IMG/VR virus record: IMGVR_UViG_3300031999_001882
Span: 64,001 to 128,000 of that record
DNA from: a virus
Reading direction: 5' to 3' (one strand)
Length of the DNA: 64,000 nucleotides
Made by a program: the position numbers and the translations under genes
The notes under the pieces: model-generated
Seen by the model: the letters and a program-made list of their open reading frames with translations, nothing else
The model's database searches: none
Told to the model about the DNA's origin: nothing
Part shown: positions 18,875 through 59,670 of the stretch, one piece after another
Position numbering within the stretch: position 1 is the first letter of the stretch
Layout of the letters: each line of letters opens with the position of its first letter

Positions 18875-18880
18875 TATCCC

Positions 18881-31283: not shown

Positions 31284-31503
31284 TGCTGGCCTCCTGTTTC
31301 TCTTTCTGTTTTCGGCGCTTCTTCATCAAGTGTGATTTGCAAACGACATGACCCTGCGCGGCCTTTTTCTTACAGAGCGGACAAAGGCCAAACCGTTTCA
31401 TCGCCTCGTACATGGATTCTGAACGAGGCTTCTTACTTATTTTTTCTGAAAGTCCGATGGCACTAACCCCTTTTCGATATTGCCGATGATTGCGTCGTAG
31501 CAA
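31252..31503 (-). CDS. Small basic zinc-finger protein (true start probably near 31413)
   Basis: CPLC...CKSH followed by a basic tail. Confidence 0.45.
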   Translation of the reverse strand: MLRRNHRQYRKGVSAIGLSEKISKKPRSESMYEAMKRFGLCPLCKKKAAQGHVVCKSHLMKKRRKQKEKQEASNAVRSFDGGL

Positions 31504-37849: not shown

Positions 37850-38905
37850 TTAGCCGCGATTCAGCGTGTCCTGAGTCCACAGATTCGAGAGACGTTCGAC
37901 CGCGCTTCCCTGCGAGGTTTTTTCAGGACCAAGCACCACAGGGGGCACATCTCCTTCACCTTCGTCAAGACTGCTGAATGTTTCAACACCTTCGGGTTTC
38001 GGTAATCCTTCGGATTTCGGTAGTCCTGCACCAGAAACTTTTGACTGGACCTTTTCGATGACACTTTCCAGCGCGGCAAGCGCCTTGTCGTCAAGTTCGG
38101 CCAGTTCTTTGCGGCAAGCTTCAAGATCAGCTTCCTCGATACCGATTTCGGTCAGCTCATGGAGAATCGCGTCAATGGCGGTAGCCTTCTCCCTCTGAAC
38201 TTCCTCCTCGGCTTTCTTCTGTAGCGCGGCCTTGGCTTCGGCGGCTTCCTTCTTTGCCGCTTCCACCGCTTTCAGGGCTTCGCCACGTTCATCGAGCGCT
38301 CTTTTCAGCAACTTCATGGGGCCGCTCAAATTTTTTGATTTGAGGTCAATGGCCTTGGTGGGTTCACCAACACCCGCCGGGTCCGGCAGACGATTGAAGA
38401 AGTCTTTGATCTTCCGGCCATGTCCCGGCACGGGAGAGATTTTGCCAGCCAAATCTCGATTGGCTTTGGCTTCTTCTTCGCTGACAGCTTCGGTCGGTCT
38501 TTCTTCCTTGCTGGCATCCTGCCGGGGCACTTCTTTTTCATTCAGCGCCCAATTCGCATAGTCAAAGTCCTTGTCGCCGGACGTGGCGATCTTTTTGAGT
38601 CCCGCTTTGACCACGGTCTTTTGCGCCGTCACCCATTTCAGGTAACCATCGAAGGTTCCACCACATTCCTTCTTAATCAGATCACAGATTTGTTCAGGTT
38701 CAATGACCTCGGACTGCTTGCCCTTGACAATCAATTTCTGAATCTCAACGGGCACGACATCTGCGGCCTTCACGACCTTGAGCTTCCCGGCCCCTTCTCT
38801 TGCAAGGAAAAAGGAACGCAGGAACGAATCACGGGCGTTCGAGCCTTCACGAATCATGTATTTCAGCGAGAATTCCATTGTAGATAGCCTCCTATTGGCA
38901 TTCAT
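37850..38905 (-). CDS. Putative scaffolding protein
   Basis: Charged, coiled-coil C-terminal half; lies between protease and decoration/capsid genes. Confidence 0.6.
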   Translation of the reverse strand: MNANRRLSTMEFSLKYMIREGSNARDSFLRSFFLAREGAGKLKVVKAADVVPVEIQKLIVKGKQSEVIEPEQICDLIKKECGGTFDGYLKWVTAQKTVVKAGLKKIATSGDKDFDYANWALNEKEVPRQDASKEERPTEAVSEEEAKANRDLAGKISPVPGHGRKIKDFFNRLPDPAGVGEPTKAIDLKSKNLSGPMKLLKRALDERGEALKAVEAAKKEAAEAKAALQKKAEEEVQREKATAIDAILHELTEIGIEEADLEACRKELAELDDKALAALESVIEKVQSKVSGAGLPKSEGLPKPEGVETFSSLDEGEGDVPPVVLGPEKTSQGSAVERLSNLWTQDTLNRG

Positions 38906-40577
38906 ATTTCGGCGTTTCCGCCGTGTCAGATTTCCTATCTAAGCCCAGCGACTCCCGCCAATAGGCGATCTTCTGCGTTTCAGGCATCTCAGTTTTCGTG
39001 CGTTCGAGCAAGACTTGGGTCGCTTGTCCGCCCCGGTAGAGCCGGAGCAAATTGGTTTGTGCATCTGCCTTGAGAGTCAGGCCCGGTCCGATTTCGATGC
39101 CGATTTCTTCCGGCTTCGGCTGGATCACGGCATAGAGCGCCTTCAAATAGGCCCCTTGGCGCGTGTCGCCCTCAAGAGACTGCCGAACGGCCTTGTCCAA
39201 GAGAATGGTTGCCATGACCTGCGGACCATAGACCAGCTCCGGGGATACCATCGGCGGGCAGGCGGTTTCCGGCGGATTGGCGATCTCCTCCTGCATCCTC
39301 TGGACTTCCTGCTGGGCATCTTGGCGGTGCTCTTGGACAGCTTGGCTGACTTCGTTGATGATCGGAAGCTGGACTTGGGCCATCATCTCGGCCAACAGCA
39401 CGTCCACCTGCTTCATCACCTCTTGGGACACTAGCCCGTCGATCTTGTTCTTGATCGCGTCCTTGATCGTTTCGTCGATCTTGGTGGAAATGGGCTTGGT
39501 TTCTTCCTGAATCTGGTCCAAAAGCGGGGTTGGAGGCACTTCGCCCACCAGCGCATCGGCCTTTACCACCTTGGAAATGGGGGCGATATCCGCCGGGTTG
39601 AAGGAAGCCGGGCCACGGCGCTCTTTGCGGCGCTTTTCCACGAAATCCCCGCCCCCGGTCATGCTGGGGGCGGCATCCATGACCTTTTTGGGGTTGGCCG
39701 CGCCGCTATCCACGGCGGGGTTGCCCTGAAAGGTCGAAGGCGACTGAGCGTTGAGCGCGGACTTATCCAGCGCAGAGCGGAGCGCCACGCGCTCCTCTGG
39801 CGACAGATTGGACAGCGCCATGTCCAGCGTGCACTTCCCGTCCGGGCATCCGGCGGCCTTGGCCTTCCTGTTCTGGTACTGGACGGCATGGGTCAAAAGG
39901 TTCTTCTGGACCGAAGCAAACACTTCAAAGACGTGCGCCTCGATGTCGGCGGGCTGGGCCACGCCGGACAGCTCCGAGAAGGTCACTTTGCGGTTGATCT
40001 CATAGGCTTTGACCCCATCCGACTGCGTGCGGCCCTTGCAGTAGGTGGGCGACATAGGGTTCATATGGGCGCACAGCTCATGCTGGTTGCGGGCGATGTT
40101 GCGGCAGATCGAGCACTCCGCTTCTTCCACGACGCATCCCATCGACACGCTGTTGAGGATTCCGGCTTCGATCTGGCGGGCGATGTCTTGATAAGCTTTC
40201 CGGTCTACAGCGACAAGACACTCAATGTATTTGCCTTCGGGATACCACACCGAGTCCAAGATGATGCCCTTGGCCTTCTCGATGGAGTCCGAGTCATGCT
40301 CGATGTAGAAACCCTTGCCCACGAAGGACTTATAGGAAGCCTCAAGCTCTTTGTCCTCAAAGAAATCCCCGTTGCCATTGGCGATGTTGGCCGTGATCGA
40401 GCGAGCGCGGAAATAAACAAAATTATCGGGGTCATAGTCGAAGGCTTCCGCCGGGAGGAAATCGCTCTTTTTAAGGAGCGTGGATTTCTTCACGACTTCC
40501 TGCCATGTCCATGTCTTGTTGTCGTTCTGCTTTAAGATGTCCGAAATCTCGATGGTCGCTTTTCTGTAAAACATCAA
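38892..40577 (-). CDS. Prohead (capsid maturation) protease with C-terminal extension
   Basis: NGNGDFF..EL..YKSFVGK..IEHD (His), SVSMGC (Ser), CSIC..CAH insert, FSELSGVAQPAD. Confidence 0.85.
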   Translation of the reverse strand: MMFYRKATIEISDILKQNDNKTWTWQEVVKKSTLLKKSDFLPAEAFDYDPDNFVYFRARSITANIANGNGDFFEDKELEASYKSFVGKGFYIEHDSDSIEKAKGIILDSVWYPEGKYIECLVAVDRKAYQDIARQIEAGILNSVSMGCVVEEAECSICRNIARNQHELCAHMNPMSPTYCKGRTQSDGVKAYEINRKVTFSELSGVAQPADIEAHVFEVFASVQKNLLTHAVQYQNRKAKAAGCPDGKCTLDMALSNLSPEERVALRSALDKSALNAQSPSTFQGNPAVDSGAANPKKVMDAAPSMTGGGDFVEKRRKERRGPASFNPADIAPISKVVKADALVGEVPPTPLLDQIQEETKPISTKIDETIKDAIKNKIDGLVSQEVMKQVDVLLAEMMAQVQLPIINEVSQAVQEHRQDAQQEVQRMQEEIANPPETACPPMVSPELVYGPQVMATILLDKAVRQSLEGDTRQGAYLKALYAVIQPKPEEIGIEIGPGLTLKADAQTNLLRLYRGGQATQVLLERTKTEMPETQKIAYWRESLGLDRKSDTAETPKYECQ

Positions 40578-41388: not shown

Positions 41389-43269
41389 CTATACCGCCGG
41401 GCCTTCCGCGCCCGGAGTCACAGGTAACTTCTCTTTTTCTTCCGGTGCGCCAGCGCCCGGCTTGGCTTCTTCGGGCTTACCCGGAGGCGGCCCAAGGCTC
41501 GGACCCTTCATCGGTCCGCCGCCTGCGGGCGCTTTGGTATCCATCAAATCTTTGAGTGGCTTGGGGCGCGAAGGCTTTTCCTCGACAGGCTTGGAATCTT
41601 CCGATGCCTTTTCCTTCATGGCGATGTCTTTCAAGATGTCCTTCATCTTGTCGCCGCGCAGGAAGCGGTCGCGCAACTCTTTGTTCTGCTCATCCGTGAG
41701 ATACGCCTTCTTGAGTTCCTGCCAATCAGGATCGAGGTAAGTGGCTTCCTCTGTCTCGAACTGCTTGGTGACGATCTTAGATGACAGCCCAAAGACATCG
41801 TTGATGATCTCCTGCGGAATGCGGCCATCGGTTCGCATTCGGAGCAACATCTCCTGCTCCTGCGTGTTGTTGAGCAAATTGAGCTTCTGCCAAATGAAGG
41901 TCGGCAGATAATAGCGGTCGTCCGGCACATTCTCTTTGAAGTTGTTGCGAACCTTGTGGTCGATCTCGGCCTTGGTTCGGCGGATGAGCTTCTGCTCACG
42001 GGCGATGGGCAGGAAAATCTTGTATTTGAAAATCTTTTCGATCTCGGCCCGCTCGGTGATATAGCGATGGAACAGCATTTTGAGGTTGACCGTCTGCCCG
42101 GCGTAGCTCGGCGCTTCGCCGCCCAACAGCGCTTCGTTGGCGAACAGCCCGGTCATAATGCGCTTGCCCACCCAATCGAACCACGGAATGAGGTTTTCAA
42201 TCTTGTCCTTGGTCCCGACATAATCCACCTGCACGCCAAAGTGGTAGATGATGTTGTAGTCCGGGTCATTCGCCGCGCTGACCAAAAGCTGTTTGAACTT
42301 GTCAAAATGCTTCTTCGACGGAATCCAGCCCTTCGCCTCGGAACCGAGCTTGAAAATCTTGATCGGGAACATATGCCGATCTACGAAGGTGTATTGGAGA
42401 TACCGAAGCTTGTCCTCGAACAGCAAATCCTTGAGCACACGCTTGACCAAGGACAGGCCGCGCAGGGTGTATTTCGATGTCCGGTTAGCGAAGTGGATCA
42501 CCCGGTTGGCATCGAGCATATAGGGTTTCCCCCGACCCACAGACTCCACGAAATGCTTAGGCATCAGGCCCACGATGGCCCGGTCCACCGGGTCATTGGA
42601 GCCGACGACTTTCTGCAACTCAGGATCGGGCAGGAGGAAATAGGCGGCGGAGTTCGAGACATAGGTGCGCTTGATGTCGATGTATTCCGGTGGATACTGG
42701 TTCCACTCGGACCATTCGAGATTGTTCTTGTCCCACATCCCATACCACATCGACTCGCCCAAAAGATGCTTGTCACGGAGCATCCAGACCGCCATTTGCA
42801 GGAGGTCCAGCTTTTCCTTGATATAGTTGAACTTGGATTTTACGGATGGCTCATCGACATGAAGCTCGAAGTCGGAGAGCGGAAAGGTCGAATGGATGTC
42901 AATGATCGAGCCGACGTAAGGCTGAAATTTGTAGTAGTGACGTAGCCGCTTATTGACCTCTTTGAGATTGTCCTCTGGGAACAGGAGGAGAACGGTATCC
43001 CAAAGCGGATCAACATAGAGAAGCGGAGTGCGTACTGTGTCTTGGGTGGAGGAGGACTGAAACAACTGCTGAAAGTCAGCTTGGCGCTTAAAGCCTTTTC
43101 CGTCACCCAACTGGCCGCCGCGCCGTGTGCCTGTGCCATCGGCTTGCGCGATCTCCGCCAGAGCTTCGCCCGCCGACTCCAACAGCTCGGACTGCTGGGC
43201 AGAGCGATGGAAGGCCCCGGAGAAGCCTACTGGCTCGAATGATTCGTCTGGATTACTATTTTTCGCCAT
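41389..43269 (-). CDS. Portal protein
   Basis: 626 aa; VIHFAN...RGLSLVKRV and IMTGLF..ALLGGE..SYA segments; upstream of the protease. Confidence 0.85.
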   Translation of the reverse strand: MAKNSNPDESFEPVGFSGAFHRSAQQSELLESAGEALAEIAQADGTGTRRGGQLGDGKGFKRQADFQQLFQSSSTQDTVRTPLLYVDPLWDTVLLLFPEDNLKEVNKRLRHYYKFQPYVGSIIDIHSTFPLSDFELHVDEPSVKSKFNYIKEKLDLLQMAVWMLRDKHLLGESMWYGMWDKNNLEWSEWNQYPPEYIDIKRTYVSNSAAYFLLPDPELQKVVGSNDPVDRAIVGLMPKHFVESVGRGKPYMLDANRVIHFANRTSKYTLRGLSLVKRVLKDLLFEDKLRYLQYTFVDRHMFPIKIFKLGSEAKGWIPSKKHFDKFKQLLVSAANDPDYNIIYHFGVQVDYVGTKDKIENLIPWFDWVGKRIMTGLFANEALLGGEAPSYAGQTVNLKMLFHRYITERAEIEKIFKYKIFLPIAREQKLIRRTKAEIDHKVRNNFKENVPDDRYYLPTFIWQKLNLLNNTQEQEMLLRMRTDGRIPQEIINDVFGLSSKIVTKQFETEEATYLDPDWQELKKAYLTDEQNKELRDRFLRGDKMKDILKDIAMKEKASEDSKPVEEKPSRPKPLKDLMDTKAPAGGGPMKGPSLGPPPGKPEEAKPGAGAPEEKEKLPVTPGAEGPAV

Positions 43270-45894: not shown

Positions 45895-46209
45895 TCAGGT
45901 TCCTGCGTGTCTATAGACGAGCGACGCACTCACATCATTAACCCCGGCGCGGATCGTCTGGATCAAACTGTCTCGGATCACGGTCGTGATTGGCGGAAGC
46001 GGCGGGAGCTGTCCAATCACCGCCGACTCGCTCAGCATCGTCACTTCCTGCATCACGCTTCCCAAGCTGATACTGTTCTCCGTGTACGGTTGTGTGAACT
46101 GCAACTGCGTCGCTTCCGTGATATGGAGAAACGAAATGTCTGAAATCGGTATCGGCTGAGACTCTTTGGGGGCGGCCCCACCTCCAAAATTTATAAGGTC
46201 ATCAGCCAC
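45895..46209 (-). CDS. Small protein (ESAVIG family paralog)
   Basis: ESAVIGQLPPLPPIT...IRAGVNDV. Confidence 0.6.
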   Translation of the reverse strand: MADDLINFGGGAAPKESQPIPISDISFLHITEATQLQFTQPYTENSISLGSVMQEVTMLSESAVIGQLPPLPPITTVIRDSLIQTIRAGVNDVSASLVYRHAGT

Positions 46210-46861
46210 AGGCGGCTCCGTTATGTCTCCGCGAATCTAAAACATCCCTGATTTCATATCCGCGCTTAATTCTGTGCGCTAAAGTATCAGCCGTCAAGCC
46301 AACCTCCTTGGCCCAATCTTGAAGAATCATTTTTCTTCCATCAAACTCAATCCAAACATTATCGCTTCTATTGCGAGCTTGCTCTGCAATCGTCGCCCAG
46401 CGAATGTTGCCGGGAACATAACCCTTGGAATTATCAATGCGATCTATGGAATGCTGTGGTGATGGCCTTCGGCCAATGGTACTTAAAAGATATTTCAAAA
46501 ATTCTGGATAAGAATTGCGCCATAGCTTATACACCTGAATGCCTTTTGCGCCATATTTTTCATAGCCCCCAGAATTTTTGCTGTGACATCTTTTTTTAAT
46601 ACCCATCCACAATGAATACTCTCGCGTGCTTTTGCCTACCTTTTTCTCTCCATGAATTGTAGCTCGCTTAGATGATACCTCTCTCCTTAAACACCCGCAT
46701 GACCGAGAATGACAAGTTATTAAATTCGACTGCATGACGACTACGGACTTGCCGCATTCGCACTTACACAGCCATAATTGCCTTTTTCCACATTTATAGC
46801 GGATTAACTTGTCTTTCCCGATAACAACGAGCCGACCAAAAACATCACCAGTCTTAATCAC
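46202..46861 (-). CDS. HNH homing endonuclease
   Basis: FGRLVV...WLCKCECG...SCGC...HSIDRIDNSKGYVPGNIRWAT..EQARN; GTG start with GAGG RBS; AT-richer than flanks. Confidence 0.9.
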   Translation of the reverse strand: MIKTGDVFGRLVVIGKDKLIRYKCGKRQLWLCKCECGKSVVVMQSNLITCHSRSCGCLRREVSSKRATIHGEKKVGKSTREYSLWMGIKKRCHSKNSGGYEKYGAKGIQVYKLWRNSYPEFLKYLLSTIGRRPSPQHSIDRIDNSKGYVPGNIRWATIAEQARNRSDNVWIEFDGRKMILQDWAKEVGLTADTLAHRIKRGYEIRDVLDSRRHNGAACG

Positions 46862-46952
46862 GATTCCTCTGGTTCCACTTTTCCGCCGCCCACCACCAAG
46901 CTCCCAGCACCCACGACAACGGCACAGCAATGATCTTGAGCAACAGCCTCAT
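46854..46952 (-). CDS. Small hydrophobic peptide (32 aa)
   Basis: Manual translation MRLLLKIIAVPLSWVLGAWWWAAEKWNQRNRD; ATGA-coupled to the upstream gene. Confidence 0.45.
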   Translation of the reverse strand: MRLLLKIIAVPLSWVLGAWWWAAEKWNQRNRD

Positions 46953-47134
46953 CCTTGTGTTTGGAGAGGTTTGACGGTGACCCGGTACTCTTGGCCCCTA
47001 AAGCTGACCGTACCCTCGGCTCCATCTGCAAGATAGTTCGAGTTCGTAAGCCCACCACCAACTCCTTCTGCCAAAGCGTCAAGGCATTCCCTGACGTGCG
47101 TCTCCTGAATCTCGGCCACTTTGGTCCAGCTCAT
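46949..47134 (-). CDS. Small protein with N-terminal WTKxA tag
   Basis: MSWTKVAE...; GGAGG RBS. Confidence 0.65.
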   Translation of the reverse strand: MSWTKVAEIQETHVRECLDALAEGVGGGLTNSNYLADGAEGTVSFRGQEYRVTVKPLQTQG

Positions 47135-47232
47135 CGGCCCCTCCCCACAAACCACGCCCCGACACACGCCACCATCCCGCCCAAAAACGGGAGGAGTTGT
47201 TCAAGAGGACACAAAACGCAGTAGAACTTCAT
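47131..47232 (-). CDS. Small hydrophobic peptide (33 aa)
   Basis: Manual translation MKFYCVLCPLEQLLPFLGGMVACVGAWFVGRGR; ATGA overlaps at both ends. Confidence 0.45.
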   Translation of the reverse strand: MKFYCVLCPLEQLLPFLGGMVACVGAWFVGRGR

Positions 47233-47711
47233 CCTCTGAAATAAACAATGCCCTGCCGTGTCTGGGCAAAGCGTCCATCCGTCAAATAGGTATCCCAACC
47301 ATCAGCAATCACAAGCTCCTGCGCGGCTTCCTGCGCGTTAATGAGCGAGCTTTGGATAGAGATGATCCATGCTTGGTCAAACGATTCGGGGGTGGCTTCC
47401 AGCATCTTCTGGACGTGCGCCACCGCGACACGCTCTGCCTTATAGGTGTCCCAGAAGAAGCGGTACTCTTGGGCGCGGCAGGTGAATGTGCCGCCGTCCT
47501 TGTCCGCTTGGAAGTTTTCGATGTCCGTAGCCCGGCAACGAAGCGAACTCGCCAGATCAGCGCGGACGCTTTCATCGCTCAGCTCAGAGGCATCACGGAT
47601 CAGACGGATTGCGTCGCGGGTTTCAACCCCACGTTCCGCGAGCCGTTCAAGCCGTTCCAGCTTATCCTCGTATTGAGGTTCCATAATTTTCCGTTGAGTG
47701 TTCTCTCTCAC
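47229..47711 (-). CDS. Hypothetical protein, shorter paralog of 47712..48461
   Basis: Shared LERLAE.GVET..AI.LIR.ASELS and YRFFWD...AERV segments. Confidence 0.7.
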   Translation of the reverse strand: MRENTQRKIMEPQYEDKLERLERLAERGVETRDAIRLIRDASELSDESVRADLASSLRCRATDIENFQADKDGGTFTCRAQEYRFFWDTYKAERVAVAHVQKMLEATPESFDQAWIISIQSSLINAQEAAQELVIADGWDTYLTDGRFAQTRQGIVYFRG

Positions 47712-48461
47712 TCAGTTCTCTCTGAAATAGACCAGACCCTTGGGGGTCGTCTCGTAATTGCCGTCGTAATGGCTGACGAAATGCGGCCAGCCATCTGTGG
47801 ACACCGCATCCTGCGCCGCTTCGTCGGTGTCGATCATAATGAAGTTGGCCTTCATCAAATCTTCGATTGAATACATCCCGCGATCATGCACGAAATACTG
47901 AATCGGGTCGGCCAACTCTTTTTCCAGCTCCTCGGACTTTGTGCCGCGCACTTCTTCCTTGGCTTCTTCGGCAATAGTCACCATCCGAGCTTCATCCCCG
48001 GCGGTCTGTGCCTCCGCATACTCATCGGCCTTGCCCGCTTCTTCGATCAGCGTGGCTTCGTCAGCCACATTGTCCACATAATCGTCGGCTTCTTCGCCCG
48101 CGATGATCCGACGGTCGGTATCCGAGATCGTGATATAACTCTGCAACCAGTCCTGATTGAAAATCTCAGGCTCAGACTCAAGATCATTCTTAACCTGTTC
48201 GACGGTCACGCGCTCCGCCGTATCCTCATCCCAGAAAAATCGGTATTCAAAGCCGCTCTTAAATGTACCCCCATCTTGGTCCATTTCAAGGTCGGTGATC
48301 TCGTCAACTTCAACGCCAAGGGCCGCCGCCAAGTCCGCGATGGTTTCTTCCTCGGACAATTCAGAAGCGTGCCGGATCAGGTCGATAGCCTCATCCGTCT
48401 CCACGCCCTTCTCGGCCAGCCGTTCCAACTGCGCGAGTCGCTTCTCTGCGGTGTTTTCCAT
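47712..48461 (-). CDS. Acidic phage protein
   Basis: Start MENTAEK; very Asp/Glu-rich; DGWPHFVSHYDG C-terminus. Confidence 0.75.
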   Translation of the reverse strand: MENTAEKRLAQLERLAEKGVETDEAIDLIRHASELSEEETIADLAAALGVEVDEITDLEMDQDGGTFKSGFEYRFFWDEDTAERVTVEQVKNDLESEPEIFNQDWLQSYITISDTDRRIIAGEEADDYVDNVADEATLIEEAGKADEYAEAQTAGDEARMVTIAEEAKEEVRGTKSEELEKELADPIQYFVHDRGMYSIEDLMKANFIMIDTDEAAQDAVSTDGWPHFVSHYDGNYETTPKGLVYFREN

Positions 48462-48462
48462 T

Positions 48463-48639
48463 TTATTTCCCTGTGTCCGGCTTCTCGTCCTTATAGAAGT
48501 AGTCCCGAACAAAATTAGTCAGCACTTCATTCGTCAAATCGTCGTAACCCTTACCCATCTCCCGCGCAATCTGGCTGAGCTGTTGGTCCAGCCATGTCGT
48601 GATCGGGACATACGCCCGCTTACGACGTTCTTCCGGCAC
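48463..48639 (-). CDS. Putative ribbon-helix-helix DNA-binding protein (58 aa)
   Basis: Manual translation MPEERRKRAYVPITTWLDQQLSQIAREMG..DDLTNEVLTNFV; coupled on both sides. Confidence 0.5.
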   Translation of the reverse strand: MPEERRKRAYVPITTWLDQQLSQIAREMGKGYDDLTNEVLTNFVRDYFYKDEKPDTGK

Positions 48640-48773
48640 TACTTCGCCGCTTTAACCGTCCCGGTCGAAATCTCTACGGTCTGAACAGCCACCTTCGCCG
48701 CTCTGTGCTTCTTGACCACAAACAGCAATGCGATTGCGGCCACCACTACGACTGCGATAACGATTTTCTTCAC
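48639..48773 (-). CDS. Small membrane-anchored peptide (44 aa)
   Basis: GTG start with AAGGAGG RBS; KKIVIAVVVVAAIALLFVV TM helix. Confidence 0.6.
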   Translation of the reverse strand: MKKIVIAVVVVAAIALLFVVKKHRAAKVAVQTVEISTGTVKAAK

Positions 48774-48783
48774 TCGACCCTCC

Positions 48784-49887
48784 TTAAAGCCGTGCGTCCG
48801 CCGCCCAATGCCCATCTCCACCATTACGATCAGTTAGGACGGCTGTTTGAAACAAAATAGAGGTGTTCTCTCCGATTGGATTTGCTGATGTCGGATGATC
48901 TGTCCTTGTTGCTGTCGTATTACTCCACCAACCCCAAGACCCAGATACTCCTGCCACCGTATAAGTATTGAAGTTTGTTGGAACTGCTCTCTTTGGAACT
49001 TTATAAATGACCATCACATCAACCTCATCGCCAATAACAAATACAGGTGCAAGACGATACATATTTATAGAAGTATTAGTCCCCGGCACAGTATCAAGCG
49101 CATAGCTTTTCTCAAAATACCTCTGACAAAGCTGAACCTCTATCGGGAACGGTCGATACTCGAACGGGGTCGCCGAAGAACCAAGCTCAAGCTGGACCCC
49201 GGTGATGTCAAAAGTGTTGCTGATTGTCGCCATCCAATTAACTTGATTTATTGAATTGGGTCGTCCGCTTGCGTTCCATTGATTCGGCGTGTCTGCAATA
49301 CCTGAATCTCTAGCTAAAACAAAATGGACCGCAAACCCCGCATTTACATCAGTCGCCCATGTGCCAGATGTATCGCCCGGATAAGTCAATGTGACGAGTT
49401 GCCACACATTTGCGCTTGTGATCGTATACTCTCGGATAAAACTTCTATTGGGCGATCCATTTTGAAGTGCCACGCAATAAGTTCCGGCCAAACTTGAGCG
49501 AACCCAAAACTGCAAAGACAATGTTTTCGCATTTACTGAACCGAATAAAAAATCCCTAACATTTAATCCTTCAATGCGTTGCTGAAACGTATAGTTGTCG
49601 TTGGATGTCAAGGGAGTACGAGCCGTCGATACAGTTGCTCGCAAATAGTAAGGAAATCCTGTTGGCGGAGTAGCCGTAGCGCGTTGAAGGGTAAAAACCC
49701 CCGCCGCACTACGTCCATTCGCTATCCACATATCAGTAGAGCGAAAATCAGCAGTACCATTTACTGTTAAAGCTGTCCCGCCGTTGGCTTGGTCAATCGC
49801 CATCTCGCCATTGATGAGCCGATTGCGGCCCATCGACGGGAAGGCCGTTGTGTTAAAATCCAACGCTGGATTCAGTTGAGTGACCAT
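48784..49887 (-). CDS. Fibre / receptor-binding-like protein outside the tail module
   Basis: RNRLINGEMAIDQ...ITGVQLELGSSATPFE.R...LCQRYFEKSY; same family as 2231..3424. Confidence 0.7.
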   Translation of the reverse strand: MVTQLNPALDFNTTAFPSMGRNRLINGEMAIDQANGGTALTVNGTADFRSTDMWIANGRSAAGVFTLQRATATPPTGFPYYLRATVSTARTPLTSNDNYTFQQRIEGLNVRDFLFGSVNAKTLSLQFWVRSSLAGTYCVALQNGSPNRSFIREYTITSANVWQLVTLTYPGDTSGTWATDVNAGFAVHFVLARDSGIADTPNQWNASGRPNSINQVNWMATISNTFDITGVQLELGSSATPFEYRPFPIEVQLCQRYFEKSYALDTVPGTNTSINMYRLAPVFVIGDEVDVMVIYKVPKRAVPTNFNTYTVAGVSGSWGWWSNTTATRTDHPTSANPIGENTSILFQTAVLTDRNGGDGHWAADARL

Positions 49888-49889
49888 AG

Positions 49890-50051
49890 TTATTTACCCA
49901 CCCATTTGCCGCTTGCCTTGCGCGGCTCTCCGCCGCCCTTCTTCCGGCTCCCGCAGGCTTGGTGATATTTGCCAAGCGACCCCGGCGTGCTCATGGCTTC
50001 CACGCCACATTTGTCGCACACAACACGGATCGCCGCTTGGCTGACGCTCAT
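49890..50051 (-). CDS. Small basic zinc-binding protein (53 aa)
   Basis: Manual translation MSVSQAAIRVVCDKCG...HQAC; ATGA-coupled. Confidence 0.5.
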   Translation of the reverse strand: MSVSQAAIRVVCDKCGVEAMSTPGSLGKYHQACGSRKKGGGEPRKASGKWVGK

Positions 50052-50290
50052 GCAGGCTCCTGCGGCGGCATCTGGCTCCGCGCCCCGCTATCTGGCGGCT
50101 CCGGCAGATCAGAACCCAACAACGCCAAAGCATCATCAATCAAATCCCGCACCGCTTCGTTGCATTCGTCGGTGGTGTTATGGGCGCACTCGCCCGCCGT
50201 GTGCTTGTAGGCTTCCACCAACACCCTGATCGCCTGTCGTGTTTTCGGTTCGTTAGAAGCAGATGGCCCGGCTGTCTTGGTCCAGCTCAT
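50048..50290 (-). CDS. Small protein with N-terminal WTKxA tag
   Basis: MSWTKTAG; AGGAGG RBS. Confidence 0.7.
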   Translation of the reverse strand: MSWTKTAGPSASNEPKTRQAIRVLVEAYKHTAGECAHNTTDECNEAVRDLIDDALALLGSDLPEPPDSGARSQMPPQEPA

Positions 50291-50487
50291 TGAAATCCTC
50301 CTGCTACCGATCCCACAACCGCTTCGGCGGCTTCGATAGCCTCTATCACTTCGTCAAAATGATCGCCTTCCGGGTCTTTAATCAGGCCCCGGTCAACCAA
50401 ATTTCGCATGGCCGCCAGCGAAATCACCAACGCATTTTCGAGACTCTTTTCGCGGCCTGCTTCTGGTGCGGCTGTCTTAGTCCACAT
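50287..50487 (-). CDS. Small protein with N-terminal WTKxA tag
   Basis: MWTKTAA; AGGAGG RBS. Confidence 0.7.
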   Translation of the reverse strand: MWTKTAAPEAGREKSLENALVISLAAMRNLVDRGLIKDPEGDHFDEVIEAIEAAEAVVGSVAGGFQ

Positions 50488-52111: not shown

Positions 52112-52339
52112 CTACCCGTTGCGTTGCCCGTTACTGCTTGCCACGGCTCTTAACGCCTTCAAAGTATCTTCATCCAGACGTGATCCTAAGCTGAAATCCA
52201 ACCTCTCTGGCCGGGCTTGCGCCGGGCGCTCTTGTCTTACAAACGCCTGCGGCTGACGACGAACGACCTTCTGCATCGGCCTTACGGCCTGAGTCTTTCG
52301 ATCTAAGAGTTCTACAGCCCGGTCGAGACTTCCCATCAT
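52112..52339 (-). CDS. Small hypothetical protein
   Basis: ATGA-coupled to the giant gene. Confidence 0.55.
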   Translation of the reverse strand: MMGSLDRAVELLDRKTQAVRPMQKVVRRQPQAFVRQERPAQARPERLDFSLGSRLDEDTLKALRAVASSNGQRNG

Positions 52340-55300
52340 TTCGTTGGTTCGAGTTCTTTCTCAGCGATAGTAAATTGCGATCCAGTACGCTGGCCGTAAG
52401 AATCCAGCGTAATCACTTCATAGCTTTTGTCCGCAGAGATCGCAGAAGCCACACGCTTGATGATCTCGGCTTTGTCACCGGACACCAACCAGACGTGAGA
52501 GCCTTCCGCGAAGCGATACCCGGCGTTCTTGAAGAAGTCGGCTGTCGATTGAAGCTTCATAGAGAGCTTTTTGCGGCGAAGCTTCTTGGATTCTTTGTCC
52601 AGCTCCCACGCGCTTCCTACAAGGTCCGAGGACTTGAACTGATCGAAGTAGCGGGCCGCACGCTGGGCGGCTTGCGCTGGCGGCAGATCGGACTTGGTAG
52701 CGATCTGATCCAAGAGCGCAGTAACGGCGGCTTTGACATCGCCGCCTCTCAGGTAAGCTTCTTCGCCAGCCTTCCAGACCTTTGAAATGTCCATCATATT
52801 GATCTGGTAGCCATACACCGCATCTTGAATGAGGTGCGCCATCTCATCCTTTTGCTTGCGCGTAATCTTGCCGGGAACTGCCGCCTGTTTCTCCACAGAT
52901 GTGTCGCCGCCGATAATCCCGTTCTCAACAAACTCGTCCTTCAATTCAGGGAACCGCTCGGCGAGCTGTTCAAAATAAGCCCCCCATTCAGCGAGTTCGC
53001 CGTAGCTGAGGTTCTGCTGACTCACCCAATTCTGCCAGCCTATCGCATAATCTCTGGCTTCTTGGGCAGTCTTGAGGACAGCATAGGGAGCCTTCTTGAG
53101 TTCTTTGGCCGCCGTGACTTCGGCAGTCGCAGGAGTGGCTTCGGCTTCCTTGGCCTTCTCCTCTTTGCGCTTGGCCCGGTCCTCCTGCTGTTCCTTGAGC
53201 CGCTTCTCCATCTTCTCAAGCGCGTCCACGGTTGACGCGATCTCTGAGGGGTCGGCTTTGTCCACATCCAAATCCTTGAGCTTGCGCCGGAGCGACTTCA
53301 CCTGATCCGACAATCCTGATTCGACTTCCATGCTGGCCTCCTTTAACTCGAACGGTTCTTCTCCTGCATAGGTGAAGATGGTTTTGCCAGTCTCCGCCAA
53401 GTCCTCTAAAGGAGAACGCAACTCATACTGCGGATACCACCAAAACTTTGGCTTGCTTCCGAAATCAATCTCTCCGTTGTCATCCAAGCTTCCATCGGAG
53501 ATGATGAGCGAATCAGTCAAAGCGCCGATCTGCTCTGGCCGAACTAACATATAGCCGTTGCCAAACATCGGCTCAAGATAATCCAGCAAACGCGAATCGC
53601 TCTGATCCTCAACATCCTGTCGGATTTCCTCTAAATCATCACCCGTTGCGGTGATCTCAAGATTCTTATTTGGCAGAACCTTCCAGCTTATACCGCCGCG
53701 AGCCTTCTTCTCCATTGACCCAAACGCACTCCCGGTCATAATACCCAGCGCCGCCTGCACGCCTCCGGCATCTGCCCCGGCCCCGATAAGCGCCTGCGAG
53801 ATGATGTGAAGCATCACCTTGCCTTGGCTCTTATACTGGTCCAAGACCCCCATGTAATCGCCGTAGTGCCCCTTGGTGGTGGCGGGCTTGCTCTCGATGT
53901 GCTTGACCATCTCGATGATGTCCGGGTCTTTCGACAGCATATCAATGGCCTGCTTAATCTTCTGCTCTCTGGACACTTCCGGCCCGCCGAAGCGATCTAA
54001 GCTGGCCGCCATCTCCATCGGCTCCTCCGGTTGTGCTTTGGCCTTGCCGATTTCCTCCGCATTGGCATCTTGCGCCTGCTGGATCGCGGCCTTGATTCCG
54101 GCCTCGTCGCCCTCAGTCGCATCACTCAAATAGCGGCGAATCTGGGTCTGAATCTTGGAGGTGGTCACCGAATACTTCTGCGTGTTGAAGAAGGTTTCTC
54201 CGGTGTTGCTTCGGAACACGATGGGGGTCGCATAGTTCACCAGCGCCCAGCCACCCGGATACTTCTGGATGGTCAAGTGCTCTGTGCCCCAGCGATCCCG
54301 CTTGTCTTTGGGGAACGAATCGTGCGCGAACATCTCAATAACCTGCTCGTTGGAGGCGGCCTCAACCTTCATTGCGGCGGTCGGCTTGCCCGGCCACTCA
54401 TCGCCTTCGGACATCGCCACGCAGTTCGCGTGCGCGAAAGAAGTCGGCATCACTTCCCCCGGCTCAGATTTGGAATCCACGATCATATCCCCGGCCTCGA
54501 TTGCGTTGCCGCATATCGGGCACGTCTCTCCGATCTCTCCTTCTTCGGCAGATCGCGCCTCTAGCTTGGAATAACACTCGTTACACAACGCTTCGTTAGG
54601 GTCATCGCCTTCGCCCCAGCCTTCCGGCATCTCCACGGGCTTCCCGCATTGAGGACACGACACGCGCTGAGCGGCCTTCTGCTTGCGCCAGCTCTTGAAC
54701 TCCTCGCTGTTGCGAACTTCGTCGCTTTCCTTCTTCTCCGGCGACTCGCGCCACTTCTTGTCCTCGTCTTGGAGCCGCTTCACGTCCTTCTGATTCTTGG
54801 GATTGTGTTCCAGAGGAGGCCAGCCAGAAGCGTCAACCTTGGTCGGCATATTGTCCGGGTCACAGCCGCATTCGTTGACGATATCATTCATCTTGCCGCA
54901 GGTCGGGCACTTGTGAATCCCGGCTTTGCGGTCATGCTTCTCGGCCAGCTCCTTCTCGAAATCCGCCAGCTCCTTACAATCCTTGCACCAGCGCGAGCCT
55001 TTCTCGGCATCGGCCTTGTGACAGAGCGTGCACTTCTGGGCGGAGGTCACCACTTGAAGGCCGCCGTGGTCATCCAAGAACCAGATGGTCGGATAGAAAT
55101 TGCCCTGATCCACCGCTTTGACGGCGGCAATCAGCTCGTCCCACTCCGGCGACTCGGCGAGCTTCTTACCGCTCTGATAAGCGGCGTACATCCCGCCAAG
55201 CTGTCCTTCGGTCTGGATCACGATATCGTCCTCGGCAGGCTCCTGCATCTCCTCCGAGTCAAACTCCTCCACCTCGGCTTCGGCTGTGCGCTTGCTGGCT

Positions 55301-58300
55301 TTCTTCTCTGATTTCTTTTGTTGCAGGATGGCTTCTGCTTCCTTGATTCGCTTGGCAACATACGCCTGCGTGCCCTTATCGGTCACATCGTTCATGCGAC
55401 TCATCCAGTTATCAATGAGCGCTTCCAGCTCGGCTACTGATTTATCCTTGAGATCGCTGGCTGTGCGCTTGCTGGCGATGGTGTCTTTCCAATAAACCCA
55501 AGCGACCGTCACCTTGTCATTCTCCACTTCGTCGATCTTGACGGCATAACCCGCCGAAGCATAAGCGCCCTTCACGCCGTTAAAGCCCAGCTTCGCCAGA
55601 TCACCATTGGGTTCCACAACCTCGAACTCGCCCAGATCAAAGATGTTCCCGTCATACCGGAAGAAGTCGCCCTCTCCGTTCTCGACGTAATCCAGCTCCT
55701 TCTTCTCCTCGTCAGTCAGTTGAGAATAATCCATGAGCGGAACAGTCTGCTCGTTCTTAACCACCAATCCAGTCGGCCCCGCTTGGTCATCGGCCTTCTT
55801 TTCAAGGGGTGGTTTCCGGTGCTTAACCGGGATATAGTGATGTTCGTCATCCAAGCATTTGTCGCATTGTCCACGTCGTTCGCGTGTCTCGTTGTCGTGA
55901 TTTTTGAGCGGGTGTCTGCATACGGCACATGGCGGGGCATCAACATTCTCTTTGAGCGGAGCATCAGCCTTGCGTCTGGCGGCCTGCGTCGGCGGCTTGC
56001 CCTGTAGCTCGGCAATGCCTGTGCTGATCCCTTCGCCCACGCCACGGTCGTACTCCTCCCACAGCTCATCAGCATTCTCGGCCTTGTTAAAGGCGCTGGC
56101 AAGAAACTCGAAGGGCGTATATTGCCGACCATTCTGCTCGGCCTCAAACGCTTCGTCGGCGATCTTTTCCACGTCGAGATTGCCTTGGGCATCTTTATAG
56201 CCTTGGAATTCGCCCTTGTTCGTGATGATGATGTTGAATCCCTCGTCATAGCCCATGCGGTACGCTTCATCCGGCATGATCGGTTCTTCTGCGCCCCGGC
56301 GACCCAGCGCCGAATAGAGACGCACCTTGGCTTCTTTGGAGAGCGGCTTGAGCGAGGACTGCTTGGTGGGTGGAATGTCGCCTTCTTCCAGATGCTCGAT
56401 CTCGCCGCTCTCGGTGAACGCCAGATCATTGGCCTCCGCATCCTCTTTGATGTATTCGTCGGACTGCTGGTACTCAAGCTCGGCATAGCCGTCCTTCTCA
56501 AGCTGACTACACAACTCCTGACGAACCTCGTCGATATACTGGATGAACTCGACGTACAGCTTCTCAAATTCCTCCGTGGACATCCCGGCTTCTGCGGCCA
56601 GATCATCCATGCTTCCGGGGGTATTGTCCTCCACCTTGACGGTGTATTTGTGGGAGTAATGATGGTCGATGCTCTTGAGGTCGATGTAAAGCGACTCATA
56701 GAACTTGGCGAAGATATTGAACCGCTCGTTCGGGTGCGCTTGCAGGAACTTCGCCACGTCCATGTGCGCGGTAAAGCTCACGCCGGAACCCTGCGTCGAG
56801 CTGAGATCGTAATTCACCTTCGGGTTCACAAACCCGTGCTCTTGCAAATCGCTCTCGGCATTCTCTTTCCAGAAATCAACGTCCGCCATTTCGTAATACT
56901 TATAGCGCACCTTGTCCTTGGCCTTCTCATCCAGATCATCGAAGGTAAAGAGATCGACCTTCCGGTAGAAGGTGTGCTTGGGCTTGCGCGGCTCGTCGGC
57001 AAATCGCTTCATAAAGCTCTCCTTGGCGGCGAGGCGCGAAGCCTCTTTGCTGATATTCTTGGCATAGGCCATCGCTTCTTCGCGTGAATCAAATGTCTTG
57101 TTGCCAGCGCCGGACTTATCCCGCTCGCCGCCGTGCTGAATGCCATCCACCAGCACCATGAACTTTCCGCCCAAAGCTTCCTTGATCGAAACATTCTCAG
57201 GCATCGACGACTTCCTTGTGCGCCGCCCGACGCGCTGTTCCGTCGGATTCACATAGACATTGTTATCCTGATCCTTGAAGAAGTCAGCGCCAAAAGAATC
57301 GAACTGGCCGCCGTTACGTTCATAGGGATCGAGAAACACCAGCTTGAAGTCCGTCGCCAAATCGCTGGCCGACATATAAAGGAACTCTGTGTTCGGCTCC
57401 TCGTCCTCTTTAAGCGGCTCGCCCGTCAGCGCTTGGTAATCCTCTTTGCTCCAATCGTTCGCATAGACCCGGAGAACCATCTCTGCCGTCTCGACTTCTC
57501 CACCCGGCGGGACCAGCATATAGACTCGATGGCCGCTCTGCATATCGGTGTCGGTCAAAAGAGTCCAGCCCGTGCGAATCTCTCCGATGTTCTCTACCGC
57601 ATTCCAGTCCACCTGAGTCTTGAGCGCTTCGCCATCGCCTTGAGTCAGCTCGGCGGGCAATGTCTTGAGCATTGCCACGGCTTCCGCGCCACTACCTTCC
57701 GCATATTCGGTCAGGGTAGCCGAGTAATTCACCTCGGTCCGCGCCCAATCCAAGAGGAATGCCAACTGCTCATCAGTCAGCGCGGCGGCTTTGCGGCTCA
57801 CCTTCTTAGCTTCAAACTCTTTGCGGTGTTCTTTCTCCTGCGAGATGGCGTGGTCCAGCACTTCCTTGAGCGCTGGGCTGGCATCTTCCTTCTGCCCGCG
57901 ATACTCGTCGATAGCGGCCTGCTCCTGCTCCACATCGCGCTTGACGATCTCAGCATCCCGGTCGGCTTTGCGCTTGGACGCGAAGGGCATCTTCATCTGC
58001 GCGGGGTTCTCTGGCGGTGTCAGCTCTTGTTTGATCGCTTGGTGAACGCCGGAGTCCTCGGCATACTTCAACAGGTCTTTGGCATCCATAAAAGCTTCAC
58101 CGTTGTTTTCAAAGGACGACTCCACAGCTTCCCATAAGAGTTGAAGCACGCGCTCGGAAGGCTCATACGCTTCGAGTGCTTCCTGCTTCTCCGCCGGAAG
58201 CTCCTTCGCCAAATCTTCCTTGACCCATTTCAGGGCTTCATCCTTACCCCATACGTCAAACGATTCCCGGTATTCCTGCTGTTCTGCATTCGTAAGAGCT

Positions 58301-59670
58301 TCCTCATCAAGCACCGGATAATCGGCCATGTCGCGCTCAATGCCTTCGGCAATCGCTACCTTGTCGGCGGCATCTTTATGGACCAGCAAGAATTCAACCC
58401 AGCCCACCGCCCAATGACCTGACTTTGCCACGACCACGCCATTGCCTTCGCCGCCCAAAGCTTTGAGCGCCGCATCGAAATTGGTTTTCTCAAGCGCTTC
58501 GGAGTCCCGGTTCTGCGTGAGCACGACATAATAATCGGAGTAGTCGTCGCCCATATAATTCTCGGCAGGCTTCCACAGTTCGAGCGCCTTGCGCTTTAAG
58601 CTGGCCGTGTCATAACGACCCTTGATGGGCGGCGCGGTCTTTTTGCCTGTGCCTTTGCAATAGGGGCACGTCTCCAAAGGCCCGGCTCCGGTGCGTGACT
58701 TCCCATAACCAGCGCAATACTCACACTCTGCTCCGTCTGCCGCCTTCGCTGTCATGCCGCCCTCCAAATAGACGTTGCCATCGTCGCCAACAATAGCATC
58801 GCAGTTCCCGAAGGCTCTGGCAATGTCGCTCAGCTTCTCACCCACATCGCCCAGCCCGCGATCCCAGAAGCCCGCGCCATGCCCACAGCGCGTCAGCCAG
58901 AAGTCATGGCCCGCCTGCTCATCGTCAATCTCATTTAAGAGATCGCCTGCTTGCTGGCGAAACGCCGCGCAATCGGCCTTGGCCTTCTCGATGCTCTCCG
59001 GGGCAATATCCTCGATCCCGAAGTTCTGATCCAGAGGTTCGCCGCCCGTCTCCGGGTCAGAGTTGTCGTTCGACGACCATAGCGCCGCTTCGAGATAGGC
59101 CGACACAAAGGGATCAAGCCCTGCGGCTTGCCGAGATGTCTTGGCCTGCTCATCGACCAGCCGCTTGTTGTGCTCGCCCTGCATATGCTCGAACGACTCC
59201 TCAGATTCATTTAAGGGTTCGCCCTTGGCTCGCTTGGCTTTGATCTTGGCTTCCATCTCCTCCTGCCACGCTACAGTCCCGAACTGAGCCGCCGACTTGG
59301 TTGCGGGCTTAACCTTGGCCCAGCACGCATCACACAGCGCCCCAAAATTCTGTTCGTTGAACATCCGCTCTCTGGCAGGCTGGCCGTCGTTCTTGCATTG
59401 GCGAGCCGCATCCCGGTTCCCGAAGTCCCGCTCTAAGATGCCCGTCTCGCAGGAGTCGCACAGCCCAGCCGCCGCGCCATAGGTATTGATGATGGTGTCC
59501 TTGCCACACTTCTTACACTTGCCTTGGGCGGCAGAGCGCTTGGAAGCCGCGCACGCGCAGGTTCCCCCGCAGGCGCACGTCTCCGACTCTTGACGAATTT
59601 TTGAAGGAGCTTTTTTGTCTTTTGGCTCCACGATATCTGTCCAATGATTTTTCAATACCGCTTTATCCAT
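52336..59670 (-). CDS. Giant mosaic (polyvalent-type) protein, 2444 aa
   Basis: Concatenated unrelated acidic modules, CxxC fingers and a ferritin-like helix pair, separated by basic [KR]-x-A linkers. Confidence 0.85.
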   Translation of the reverse strand: MDKAVLKNHWTDIVEPKDKKAPSKIRQESETCACGGTCACAASKRSAAQGKCKKCGKDTIINTYGAAAGLCDSCETGILERDFGNRDAARQCKNDGQPARERMFNEQNFGALCDACWAKVKPATKSAAQFGTVAWQEEMEAKIKAKRAKGEPLNESEESFEHMQGEHNKRLVDEQAKTSRQAAGLDPFVSAYLEAALWSSNDNSDPETGGEPLDQNFGIEDIAPESIEKAKADCAAFRQQAGDLLNEIDDEQAGHDFWLTRCGHGAGFWDRGLGDVGEKLSDIARAFGNCDAIVGDDGNVYLEGGMTAKAADGAECEYCAGYGKSRTGAGPLETCPYCKGTGKKTAPPIKGRYDTASLKRKALELWKPAENYMGDDYSDYYVVLTQNRDSEALEKTNFDAALKALGGEGNGVVVAKSGHWAVGWVEFLLVHKDAADKVAIAEGIERDMADYPVLDEEALTNAEQQEYRESFDVWGKDEALKWVKEDLAKELPAEKQEALEAYEPSERVLQLLWEAVESSFENNGEAFMDAKDLLKYAEDSGVHQAIKQELTPPENPAQMKMPFASKRKADRDAEIVKRDVEQEQAAIDEYRGQKEDASPALKEVLDHAISQEKEHRKEFEAKKVSRKAAALTDEQLAFLLDWARTEVNYSATLTEYAEGSGAEAVAMLKTLPAELTQGDGEALKTQVDWNAVENIGEIRTGWTLLTDTDMQSGHRVYMLVPPGGEVETAEMVLRVYANDWSKEDYQALTGEPLKEDEEPNTEFLYMSASDLATDFKLVFLDPYERNGGQFDSFGADFFKDQDNNVYVNPTEQRVGRRTRKSSMPENVSIKEALGGKFMVLVDGIQHGGERDKSGAGNKTFDSREEAMAYAKNISKEASRLAAKESFMKRFADEPRKPKHTFYRKVDLFTFDDLDEKAKDKVRYKYYEMADVDFWKENAESDLQEHGFVNPKVNYDLSSTQGSGVSFTAHMDVAKFLQAHPNERFNIFAKFYESLYIDLKSIDHHYSHKYTVKVEDNTPGSMDDLAAEAGMSTEEFEKLYVEFIQYIDEVRQELCSQLEKDGYAELEYQQSDEYIKEDAEANDLAFTESGEIEHLEEGDIPPTKQSSLKPLSKEAKVRLYSALGRRGAEEPIMPDEAYRMGYDEGFNIIITNKGEFQGYKDAQGNLDVEKIADEAFEAEQNGRQYTPFEFLASAFNKAENADELWEEYDRGVGEGISTGIAELQGKPPTQAARRKADAPLKENVDAPPCAVCRHPLKNHDNETRERRGQCDKCLDDEHHYIPVKHRKPPLEKKADDQAGPTGLVVKNEQTVPLMDYSQLTDEEKKELDYVENGEGDFFRYDGNIFDLGEFEVVEPNGDLAKLGFNGVKGAYASAGYAVKIDEVENDKVTVAWVYWKDTIASKRTASDLKDKSVAELEALIDNWMSRMNDVTDKGTQAYVAKRIKEAEAILQQKKSEKKASKRTAEAEVEEFDSEEMQEPAEDDIVIQTEGQLGGMYAAYQSGKKLAESPEWDELIAAVKAVDQGNFYPTIWFLDDHGGLQVVTSAQKCTLCHKADAEKGSRWCKDCKELADFEKELAEKHDRKAGIHKCPTCGKMNDIVNECGCDPDNMPTKVDASGWPPLEHNPKNQKDVKRLQDEDKKWRESPEKKESDEVRNSEEFKSWRKQKAAQRVSCPQCGKPVEMPEGWGEGDDPNEALCNECYSKLEARSAEEGEIGETCPICGNAIEAGDMIVDSKSEPGEVMPTSFAHANCVAMSEGDEWPGKPTAAMKVEAASNEQVIEMFAHDSFPKDKRDRWGTEHLTIQKYPGGWALVNYATPIVFRSNTGETFFNTQKYSVTTSKIQTQIRRYLSDATEGDEAGIKAAIQQAQDANAEEIGKAKAQPEEPMEMAASLDRFGGPEVSREQKIKQAIDMLSKDPDIIEMVKHIESKPATTKGHYGDYMGVLDQYKSQGKVMLHIISQALIGAGADAGGVQAALGIMTGSAFGSMEKKARGGISWKVLPNKNLEITATGDDLEEIRQDVEDQSDSRLLDYLEPMFGNGYMLVRPEQIGALTDSLIISDGSLDDNGEIDFGSKPKFWWYPQYELRSPLEDLAETGKTIFTYAGEEPFELKEASMEVESGLSDQVKSLRRKLKDLDVDKADPSEIASTVDALEKMEKRLKEQQEDRAKRKEEKAKEAEATPATAEVTAAKELKKAPYAVLKTAQEARDYAIGWQNWVSQQNLSYGELAEWGAYFEQLAERFPELKDEFVENGIIGGDTSVEKQAAVPGKITRKQKDEMAHLIQDAVYGYQINMMDISKVWKAGEEAYLRGGDVKAAVTALLDQIATKSDLPPAQAAQRAARYFDQFKSSDLVGSAWELDKESKKLRRKKLSMKLQSTADFFKNAGYRFAEGSHVWLVSGDKAEIIKRVASAISADKSYEVITLDSYGQRTGSQFTIAEKELEPTK

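Follow-up and report, generated by a model that had tools for sequence, protein, structure and literature searches.

Why should several genes of one phage, coding for proteins that otherwise have little in common, begin with nearly the same few residues? The question is raised by a 64,000-nucleotide stretch of DNA, hereafter the window, which comprises bases 64001-128000 of the 144,307-bp record of an uncultured phage (IMG/VR record IMGVR_UViG_3300031999_001882) whose genes lie almost all on the minus strand. We found a tag with the consensus M-(S/Q)-W-T-K-x-A at the start of six genes of this 144-kb phage. A first-pass annotation of the window had proposed that such starts are a portable address-plus-cleavage tag for loading cargo into the phage head. 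Our own reading is that the tag would work in the manner of the capsid-targeting sequence (CTS) of phage T4, but with a different sequence and with a basic-x-Ala cleavage site; judged from sequence evidence, we put its probability at roughly 0.55. The tagged genes are the following.

50287-50487, minus strand: tagged gene of 66 amino acids, beginning M-W-T-K-T-A-A-P; the product is acidic (isoelectric point 4.5), AGGAGG lies 10 nt upstream, and the body has no homologue in relatives.
50048-50290, minus strand: tagged gene of 80 amino acids, beginning M-S-W-T-K-T-A-G-P; it stands in tandem with the gene at 50287-50487, of which it is a weak paralogue.
46949-47134, minus strand: tagged gene of 61 amino acids, beginning M-S-W-T-K-V-A-E; its body has no homologue in relatives.
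31437-32879, minus strand: tagged protein of 480 amino acids, beginning M-Q-W-T-K-Q-A-D; conserved, with a disordered N-terminal half and a folded C-terminal domain.
Genome positions 130111 and 130379 (66111 and 66379 in window numbering, past the window end): two more tagged starts, from a six-frame scan of the whole record.

The four starts that the first-pass annotation had listed with strong ribosome-binding sites (RBSs), at 50487, 50290, 47134 and 32879, are all found on the minus strand at those positions, each preceded by an AGGAGG/GGAGG-type site. Its description of the four genes as unrelated is slightly overstated because the 50487 and 50290 genes are weak tandem paralogues (30% over 60 amino acids, E 2e-5). 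The scan of the whole genome that it had suggested as a check finds the tag far above background: of 877 candidate starts with RBS support in the six frames, six match the strict pattern M-x(0,1)-W-T-[KR]-x-A, where N-terminal composition predicts 0.02, and the tagged genes are grouped around the head module. At internal positions of other proteins W-x-[KR]-x(0,2)-A stands at background (8 observed, 6.5 expected). The five small tagged open reading frames (ORFs) have coding scores of 0.11-0.35 in the tagged frame only, where true genes score 0.22 +/- 0.10 and shifted frames -0.36. Their products are mostly acidic, and searches of the tagged proteins against Pfam and PHROGs gave no match.

A shared gene start need not reflect a shared protein function. 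It could be a functionless product of common descent or of recombination at a gene-start cassette, or it could be a translation element that acts as RNA, and the 50487 and 50290 genes lend this explanation something, being weak paralogues that have their RBS and early coding DNA in common; the DNA similarity around these two starts, noted at first pass, is real. The relatives of the phage tell a different story. Portals 70-81% identical to that of this phage are encoded by three contigs from IMG/VR and one from a metagenome, and tags there take the forms M-W-T-K-T-A, M-S-W-T-K-Q/V-A, M-Q-W-T-K-V-S, M-W-T-R-H/L-A and M-S-W-T-R-V-A. Among 20 tags from five related genomes Thr is written as ACT, ACC, ACA and ACG, the basic position as AAA, AAG or CGA, AGG, AGA, Ala with all four of its codons, and Ser before Trp as AGC, AGT or TCT, while the upstream DNA differs. 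The nucleotide conservation expected of an RNA-level translation operator is thus absent, synonymous codons all being in use at T, K/R and A. Lys and Arg are exchanged and the residues stay; the upstream DNA of the starts other than the 50487/50290 pair differs, and the tag persists on unrelated bodies across genomes whose head genes are 50-80% identical. This variety of synonymous codons, together with the differing upstream DNA, rules out an RNA operator and a recombination cassette as the cause, and a functionless or RNA-level origin is therefore very improbable and largely refuted. It is the peptide itself that is under selection, not the RNA.

The bodies behind the tags turn over rapidly. 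With the first nine residues taken off, homologues of most small tagged proteins are undetectable in the other genomes, and ortholog pairs number four only. Some small proteins of the relatives (at 74169 and 74969 in contig G1, and at 98492 and about 97850 in contig G2) contain a tandem pair of tag-like elements, M-x-W-T-[KR] at the N-terminus and A-W-V-[KR]-[ST] 15-25 residues further on; one ortholog of these proteins begins directly at the second element. No DNA-level match to the phage DNA region was obtained among 50,697 phage records, and a portal-based search for relatives yielded none in prokaryote genomes and added only one 8.6-kb contig from metagenomes.

The position of the tagged genes bears on what the peptide might bind. 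All six are confined to 33.5 kb of the 144-kb genome; they belong to the late structural block and share the strand of the head genes. The gene for the 480-residue tagged protein lies downstream of the capsid gene, at a distance of 3.4 kb; the window's three small tagged genes stand 4-7 kb upstream of the portal gene, in a plastic stretch shared with an HNH endonuclease gene and a fibre-like gene; and the two tagged genes outside the window are directly upstream of the gene for a 1436-residue protein. The head module, which also contains a gene for a 156-residue protein, and the adjoining endonuclease gene are laid out as follows.

41389-43269, minus strand: portal protein; F-x-R-x-A is kept at residues 60-64, between a variable N-terminus and the conserved core.
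38892-40574, minus strand: prohead protease, 560 amino acids from ATG; predicted gp21/assemblin fold with H93 and S144, and a disordered N-terminal arm.
37850-38878, minus strand: scaffold-like protein, 342 amino acids from M-E-F-S-L; conserved V-V-K-A-A-D at residues 35-40.
36290-37291, minus strand: major capsid protein (MCP) of HK97 type; N-terminal extension with conserved I-[LM]-K-A-A at residues 23-27.
46202-46930: HNH endonuclease gene (PHROG 374, E 8e-53), separating the tagged gene at 47134 from the genes that lead to the portal.

Neighbourhood of this kind is consistent with cargo for the head. It is also conceivable that the tag docks its proteins to some common partner other than the capsid, such as a host target, a chaperone or another part of the virion, or that it is a turnover signal for a host AAA+ protease, for example ClpXP. 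N-terminal recognition motifs have reportedly been described for ClpX, and a short N-terminal pattern of polar residue, aromatic residue, T and basic residue loosely recalls them; the tagged proteins, small and mostly acidic, also resemble many cytoplasmic anti-defence proteins. Against a degron stands the placement of the tagged genes in the late structural block on the head-gene strand, and a search of the phage genome for another protease, ClpP, did not find one. Given also the internal copies and the head-protein termini described below, we regard a non-capsid partner or a degron as unlikely.

The tag is not confined to the starts of genes. The first-pass annotation had seen in the 480-residue protein a second copy, W-L-K-K-A-D, at the head of an internal repeat; this copy is there, and a third, A-W-L-K-N-P, precedes the folded domain. 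The W-x-K sites fall at residues 3-5, at residues 108-110 (window 32541-32558 with the following K-A-D) and at residues 224-226 (window 32202-32210). Ten homologues with 40-90% identity keep M1, W3, K5, A7, W108, K110, A112, W224, L225 and K226 invariant, W108-K110-A112 heading the internal repeat and W224-L225-K226 lying directly before the folded domain. AlphaFold2 predicts residues 1-246 to be disordered and residues 247-480 to be folded, so that, taken with the placement of the W-x-K sites, the layout of the protein appears to be tag, spacer, tag, spacer, tag, domain. A two-module zinc-ribbon protein of 106 residues in one relative (L003) begins M-W-T-R-L-A and has S-S-W-T-K-T-A-A-P before its second module. 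Such header positions would fit a site at which modules are separated from one another, and copies of the motif at module boundaries are unexpected for a degron that needs a free N-terminus.

A related motif occurs in the linkers of a very large protein encoded in the window.

52336-59670, minus strand: multi-module protein of 2444 amino acids; its linkers have a [KR]-x-A core in common with the tag.

In this protein [KR][KR]-x-A-[DESA] is observed 10 times against 1.4 expected and S-[KR][KR]-x-A five times against 0.2. A search of it for W-x-[KR]-x-A found none, the linkers being without the W-T part. The proposal that the tag ends in the linker motif of this polyprotein consequently stands for a low-information [KR]-x-A followed by a small or acidic residue and fails for W-T, which is specific to the tag: the [KR]-x-A core is all that tag and linkers have in common. 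Polyvalent proteins have reportedly been described from phages and conjugative elements. Like them, the 2444-residue protein strings many small modules together by means of repeated linkers; unlike them, the tags described here are found on free-standing small genes and have W-T added.

A cleavable tag would need a protease, and the head module encodes a candidate. The prohead protease matches a PHROG head maturation protease family (E 1.8e-22). A comparison with the PDB by sequence gave no match; the catalytic domain, residues 48-220, is modelled by AlphaFold2 with a confidence score (pLDDT) above 93, and the best PDB matches of the model are T4 gp21 (5jbl) and the herpesvirus assemblins, with probabilities of 0.99-1.0. 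Thirty-six relatives keep His93 and Ser144 without exception. Residues 1-47 are predicted to be disordered, yet in the same relatives they hold two conserved linear motifs. The first is the N-terminus itself, M-phi-phi-[KR]-x-[AG]-[TS] (phi, aromatic/hydrophobic), which reads M-F-Y-R-K-A-T here, M-F-I-R-R-A-T in close relatives and M-L-I-K-T-A-T, M-I-Y-K-T-A-N or M-I-E-K-T-A-T elsewhere. The second is a site of the type phi-[KR]-[TK]-A, 10-20 residues ahead of the catalytic domain; the arm of this protease has V-V-K-K-S-T / L-L-K-K-S-D at residues 27-38, and Bacillus phage G has L-V-K-T-A-A / V-V-K-I-A-P at the same position. On its sequence, the N-terminus of the protease has the architecture of a cargo tag: Met, aromatic/hydrophobic, x, basic, x, Ala. 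Finding the same type of motif on the prohead protease and on scaffold-like proteins argues against a partner outside the capsid and against a degron.

Sites of the [KR]-x-A type are also kept in the MCP extension, the scaffold-like protein, the portal and the protease arm. The MCP extension, of about 50 residues and Gly-rich after residue 30, is absent from the phage G capsid protein gp27 and is a candidate propeptide; the scaffold-like protein is so called from its gene position and its coiled, acidic C-terminal half. Because [KR]-x-A is a weak motif, the sites in MCP, scaffold-like protein and portal are suggestive only as candidate cleavage sites. In the protease genes of four distant relatives (L104, L116, L123 and L131) the frame leaves the family directly after the catalytic S-M-G-C/A, at alignment columns of about 255-330; the departing stretch is Cys-led, with for example F-L-A-G-T-P-V-L, and looks like an intein inserted at the protease active site.

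How widely is this arrangement distributed? A search based on the protease retrieved 72 further loci, of which 69 could be analysed. De novo clustering of their N-termini with an internal-position control detected tags only in the clade of this phage, in that of its nearest outgroup and in a phage G-like clade. The outgroup, L066 (IMGVR_UViG_3300031746_000002), has a protease and an MCP that are about 50% identical to those of this phage. Directly downstream of its MCP gene, a stretch of 3.5 kb (16346-19950) holds nine M-x-W-[LN]-..K..A starts, each with a strong Shine-Dalgarno sequence. One third of the nine are in frame inside longer ORFs with a Shine-Dalgarno sequence of their own, so tagged modules are strung together there, either fused or doubly initiated. 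A pattern search of the whole 139-kb L066 contig gave three such starts near head genes and one elsewhere, with none in the control.

Bacillus phage G (NC_023719) extends the comparison to a cultured phage. Its head module is homologous to the one described here (protease 43% identity, E 1e-35; MCP E 2e-37; portal E 4e-61), and it has a tag of its own, M-K-R-L-phi-K-K-[AS] (commonly M-K-R-L-I-K-K-[AS]) or close variants, at about 30 RBS-supported starts across its 498-kb genome; many proteins annotated near its head genes begin in this way, and exact M-K-R-L-x-K is found 10 times forward and once in the control. Examples are the following.

Phage G record positions 11937, 16055, 28218, 35181, 73330, 147654, 244460, 254652 and 258975: tagged starts.

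Among the phage G proteins that carry the tag, which are unrelated to one another, are a GNAT acetyltransferase, a ferritin-like protein, a nucleoside deoxyribosyltransferase-like protein and a weak PARP-like match; in several, Y-H-G-T-S follows shortly after the tag, within a few residues. In phage G and four related loci an acidic gene of 130-180 codons directly after the protease begins with the tag (..S-R-L-K-K-T-A-L-M-P, M-K-R-L-I-R-K-A-L-M-D-P). It sits where a scaffold gene would be expected, and from that position we call it scaffold-like. A literature search found neither the phage G tag strings nor the tags of the uncultured phages described, in phage G or elsewhere, and the text of PMC12484599 gives no per-protein virion list. 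The sequence of the tag thus changes from clade to clade, whereas its architecture is retained, as is its link to this protease family.

These observations suggest a mechanism in which the tag is a short portable linear motif that heads unrelated, rapidly exchanged small proteins and the modules of multi-module proteins. With its aromatic-x-basic part the tag would attach the nascent protein to some component of the procapsid under assembly, perhaps along the route that the protease and the scaffold take. Cleavage by the protease of gp21/assemblin fold, at the basic-x-Ala core or next to it, would follow, and the cargo, freed inside the head, would be delivered with the DNA. Because the N-terminus of the protease, and that of the scaffold-like protein in phage G-like relatives, is tag-like, the cargo tags are probably copies of the signal that admits the core head-assembly proteins to the procapsid. 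The small, exchangeable cargo proteins may, on the model of T4 IPI and Alt, be considered candidates for counter-defence. Of the original proposal, portability, selection on the protein, clustering with head genes, copies at module boundaries and the presence of a protease of predicted gp21/assemblin fold have all gained support from sequence; beyond a shared, selected, portable motif near head genes, the steps of encapsidation, cleavage, cut position and receptor are ones that we infer. More tentatively, and at somewhat less than even odds, the same scheme may be a lineage-wide form of cargo addressing in HK97-type phages from this uncultured clade to phage G. A tag of 6-8 residues copying the protease/scaffold signal would bring dozens of unrelated proteins into the head (in phage G also enzymes, with GNAT, deoxyribosyltransferase-like and ferritin-like proteins among them), to be cut at basic-x-Ala, the tag drifting (W-T-K-x-A, W-L-N-x-K-A, K-R-L-I-K-K-A) and the architecture staying.

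Several points weigh against cleavable head-loading tags. A cut after Ala would remove just 6-7 residues, where the T4 CTS has 10-20. [KR]-x-A is low in information, and the MCP, scaffold and portal sites, kept in three or four close relatives, could be due to chance. Clear tags within 10 kb occur in just three clades of the 69 protease-related loci. The C-terminal domain of the 480-residue protein has no meaningful fold match in the PDB or among viral folds (best Z 5.7). Finally, the spacing from K to A varies from 0 to 2 residues among the homologues of that protein, and varies alike at both sites within one protein, so that the cut position cannot be fixed from sequence. This last variation suits a binding motif better than the fixed register of a protease subsite, and it would be accommodated if the tag were an uncleaved docking peptide for capsid or scaffold, by which cargo stays anchored at its N-terminus as encapsulin cargo does through its loading peptides. 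The evidence of association with the head is the same for this explanation as for the cleavable tag. A tag before each module, however, makes most sense if the modules get separated, its core is common to the enriched linkers of the 2444-residue protein, and the structurally solved relatives of the protease all process head-internal proteins. An uncleaved peptide therefore seems to us distinctly improbable, and we continue to favour a tag that is removed.

A CTS is said to be carried in T4 by the internal proteins IPI-III and by Alt. The T4 internal-protein loci encode diverse proteins that share just the CTS (PMC3012670; PMC5694885). The two systems are alike in that a short N-terminal peptide heads diverse, fast-evolving proteins, cargo genes differ between close relatives, a prohead protease of gp21 fold is present in both phages and the tag ends in a candidate protease site. 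They differ in that the present tag has no sequence similarity to the T4 CTS, that its candidate site is basic-x-Ala where T4 has L/I-x-Glu, with no terminal Glu, and that, unlike the CTS, it also occurs internally, before the modules of polyprotein-like genes; the head module here is moreover of HK97/phage G type and not of T4 type. Since it resembles neither the CTS sequence nor the Glu site, the tag would work like the T4 CTS and not be a member of that group by descent.

Herpesvirus assemblin has the same protease fold. Its maturation and release sites are of the form hydrophobic-x-Ala / Ser, cut after Ala, and the candidate phi-phi-K-A-A sites of MCP and scaffold-like protein resemble sites cut in that way; in both systems cleavage would release an anchoring peptide from the shell. 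In herpesviruses, however, the anchor is the C-terminal tail of the scaffold and the sites are found in protease and scaffold only, whereas here the peptide is N-terminal and on many unrelated proteins. Encapsulin cargo-loading peptides are likewise short terminal peptides that send unrelated cargo into an HK97-fold shell, but their usual place is the C-terminus, they stay uncleaved and their sequences are unrelated to the tag, and this phage has no encapsulin. The phiKZ-like giant phages, for example SPN3US, also have many head-internal proteins processed by a gp21-type protease at a short consensus; their propeptides are mostly longer than 100 residues, with no single shared short tag, and the site is x-x-Glu (PMC5694885, PMC10052503). 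Outside T4 and the phiKZ-like phages we found no short shared tags in print.

A number of other strings resembling the tag, and some features of the neighbourhood, complete the description. ATG-TGG-ACN-AAR at genome position 14381 was ruled out as a gene start: it has no RBS and belongs to the reading frame of a glycosyltransferase-like ORF (genome 13965-14786, window -50035 to -49214). The in-frame M-W-T-K-T-A of this ORF, at residue 136, is written in the codons of the 50487 tag and may be a chance string or mark an internal start; the ORF has glycosyltransferase paralogues in an 818-residue protein at window 22888-25344. M-W-T-K-P at 53267 is out of frame in the gene for the 2444-residue protein and arises from in-frame V-D-K-A-D, and a looser M-W-V-K-C-S at 31129 is probably no gene start, as a conserved ORF in another frame seems to cover the site. 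A scan of IMG/VR for exact tag DNA returned 13 matches, all of them chance or frame-shifted strings in unrelated contigs. Two of them are broken starts in one 78-kb contig (L005, IMGVR_UViG_3300029783_000006), which has M-A-W-T-K-T-A-N and M-S-W-T-K-T-A-N at 3729 and 11042, in frames that break after 38 and 18 codons; because the stop codons are mixed, the breaks do not come from a recoded stop. Adjacent paralogous genes at 47229-48512 encode proteins of 160 and 266 residues (p160 and p266) that have in common an N-terminal helix region with L-E-R-L-A-E-[KR]-G-V-E-T and a C-terminal G-x-V-Y-F-R motif. The resemblance of the 61-residue tagged protein to their C-terminus is not significant (E 0.023).

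If the tag does act as we propose, a short removable capsid-targeting peptide would be a recurrent solution in unrelated head-assembly lineages and no peculiarity of T4. The proteins that uncultured phages inject could then be read directly off their sequence as a list of tagged genes. A pool of fast-evolving proteins, candidates for anti-defence, would come into view, and foreign proteins could be packaged in HK97-type capsids by means of a very short handle. The same architecture is present in phage G, a cultured phage whose virions have reportedly already been analysed by mass spectrometry, and the idea is thus testable at once.

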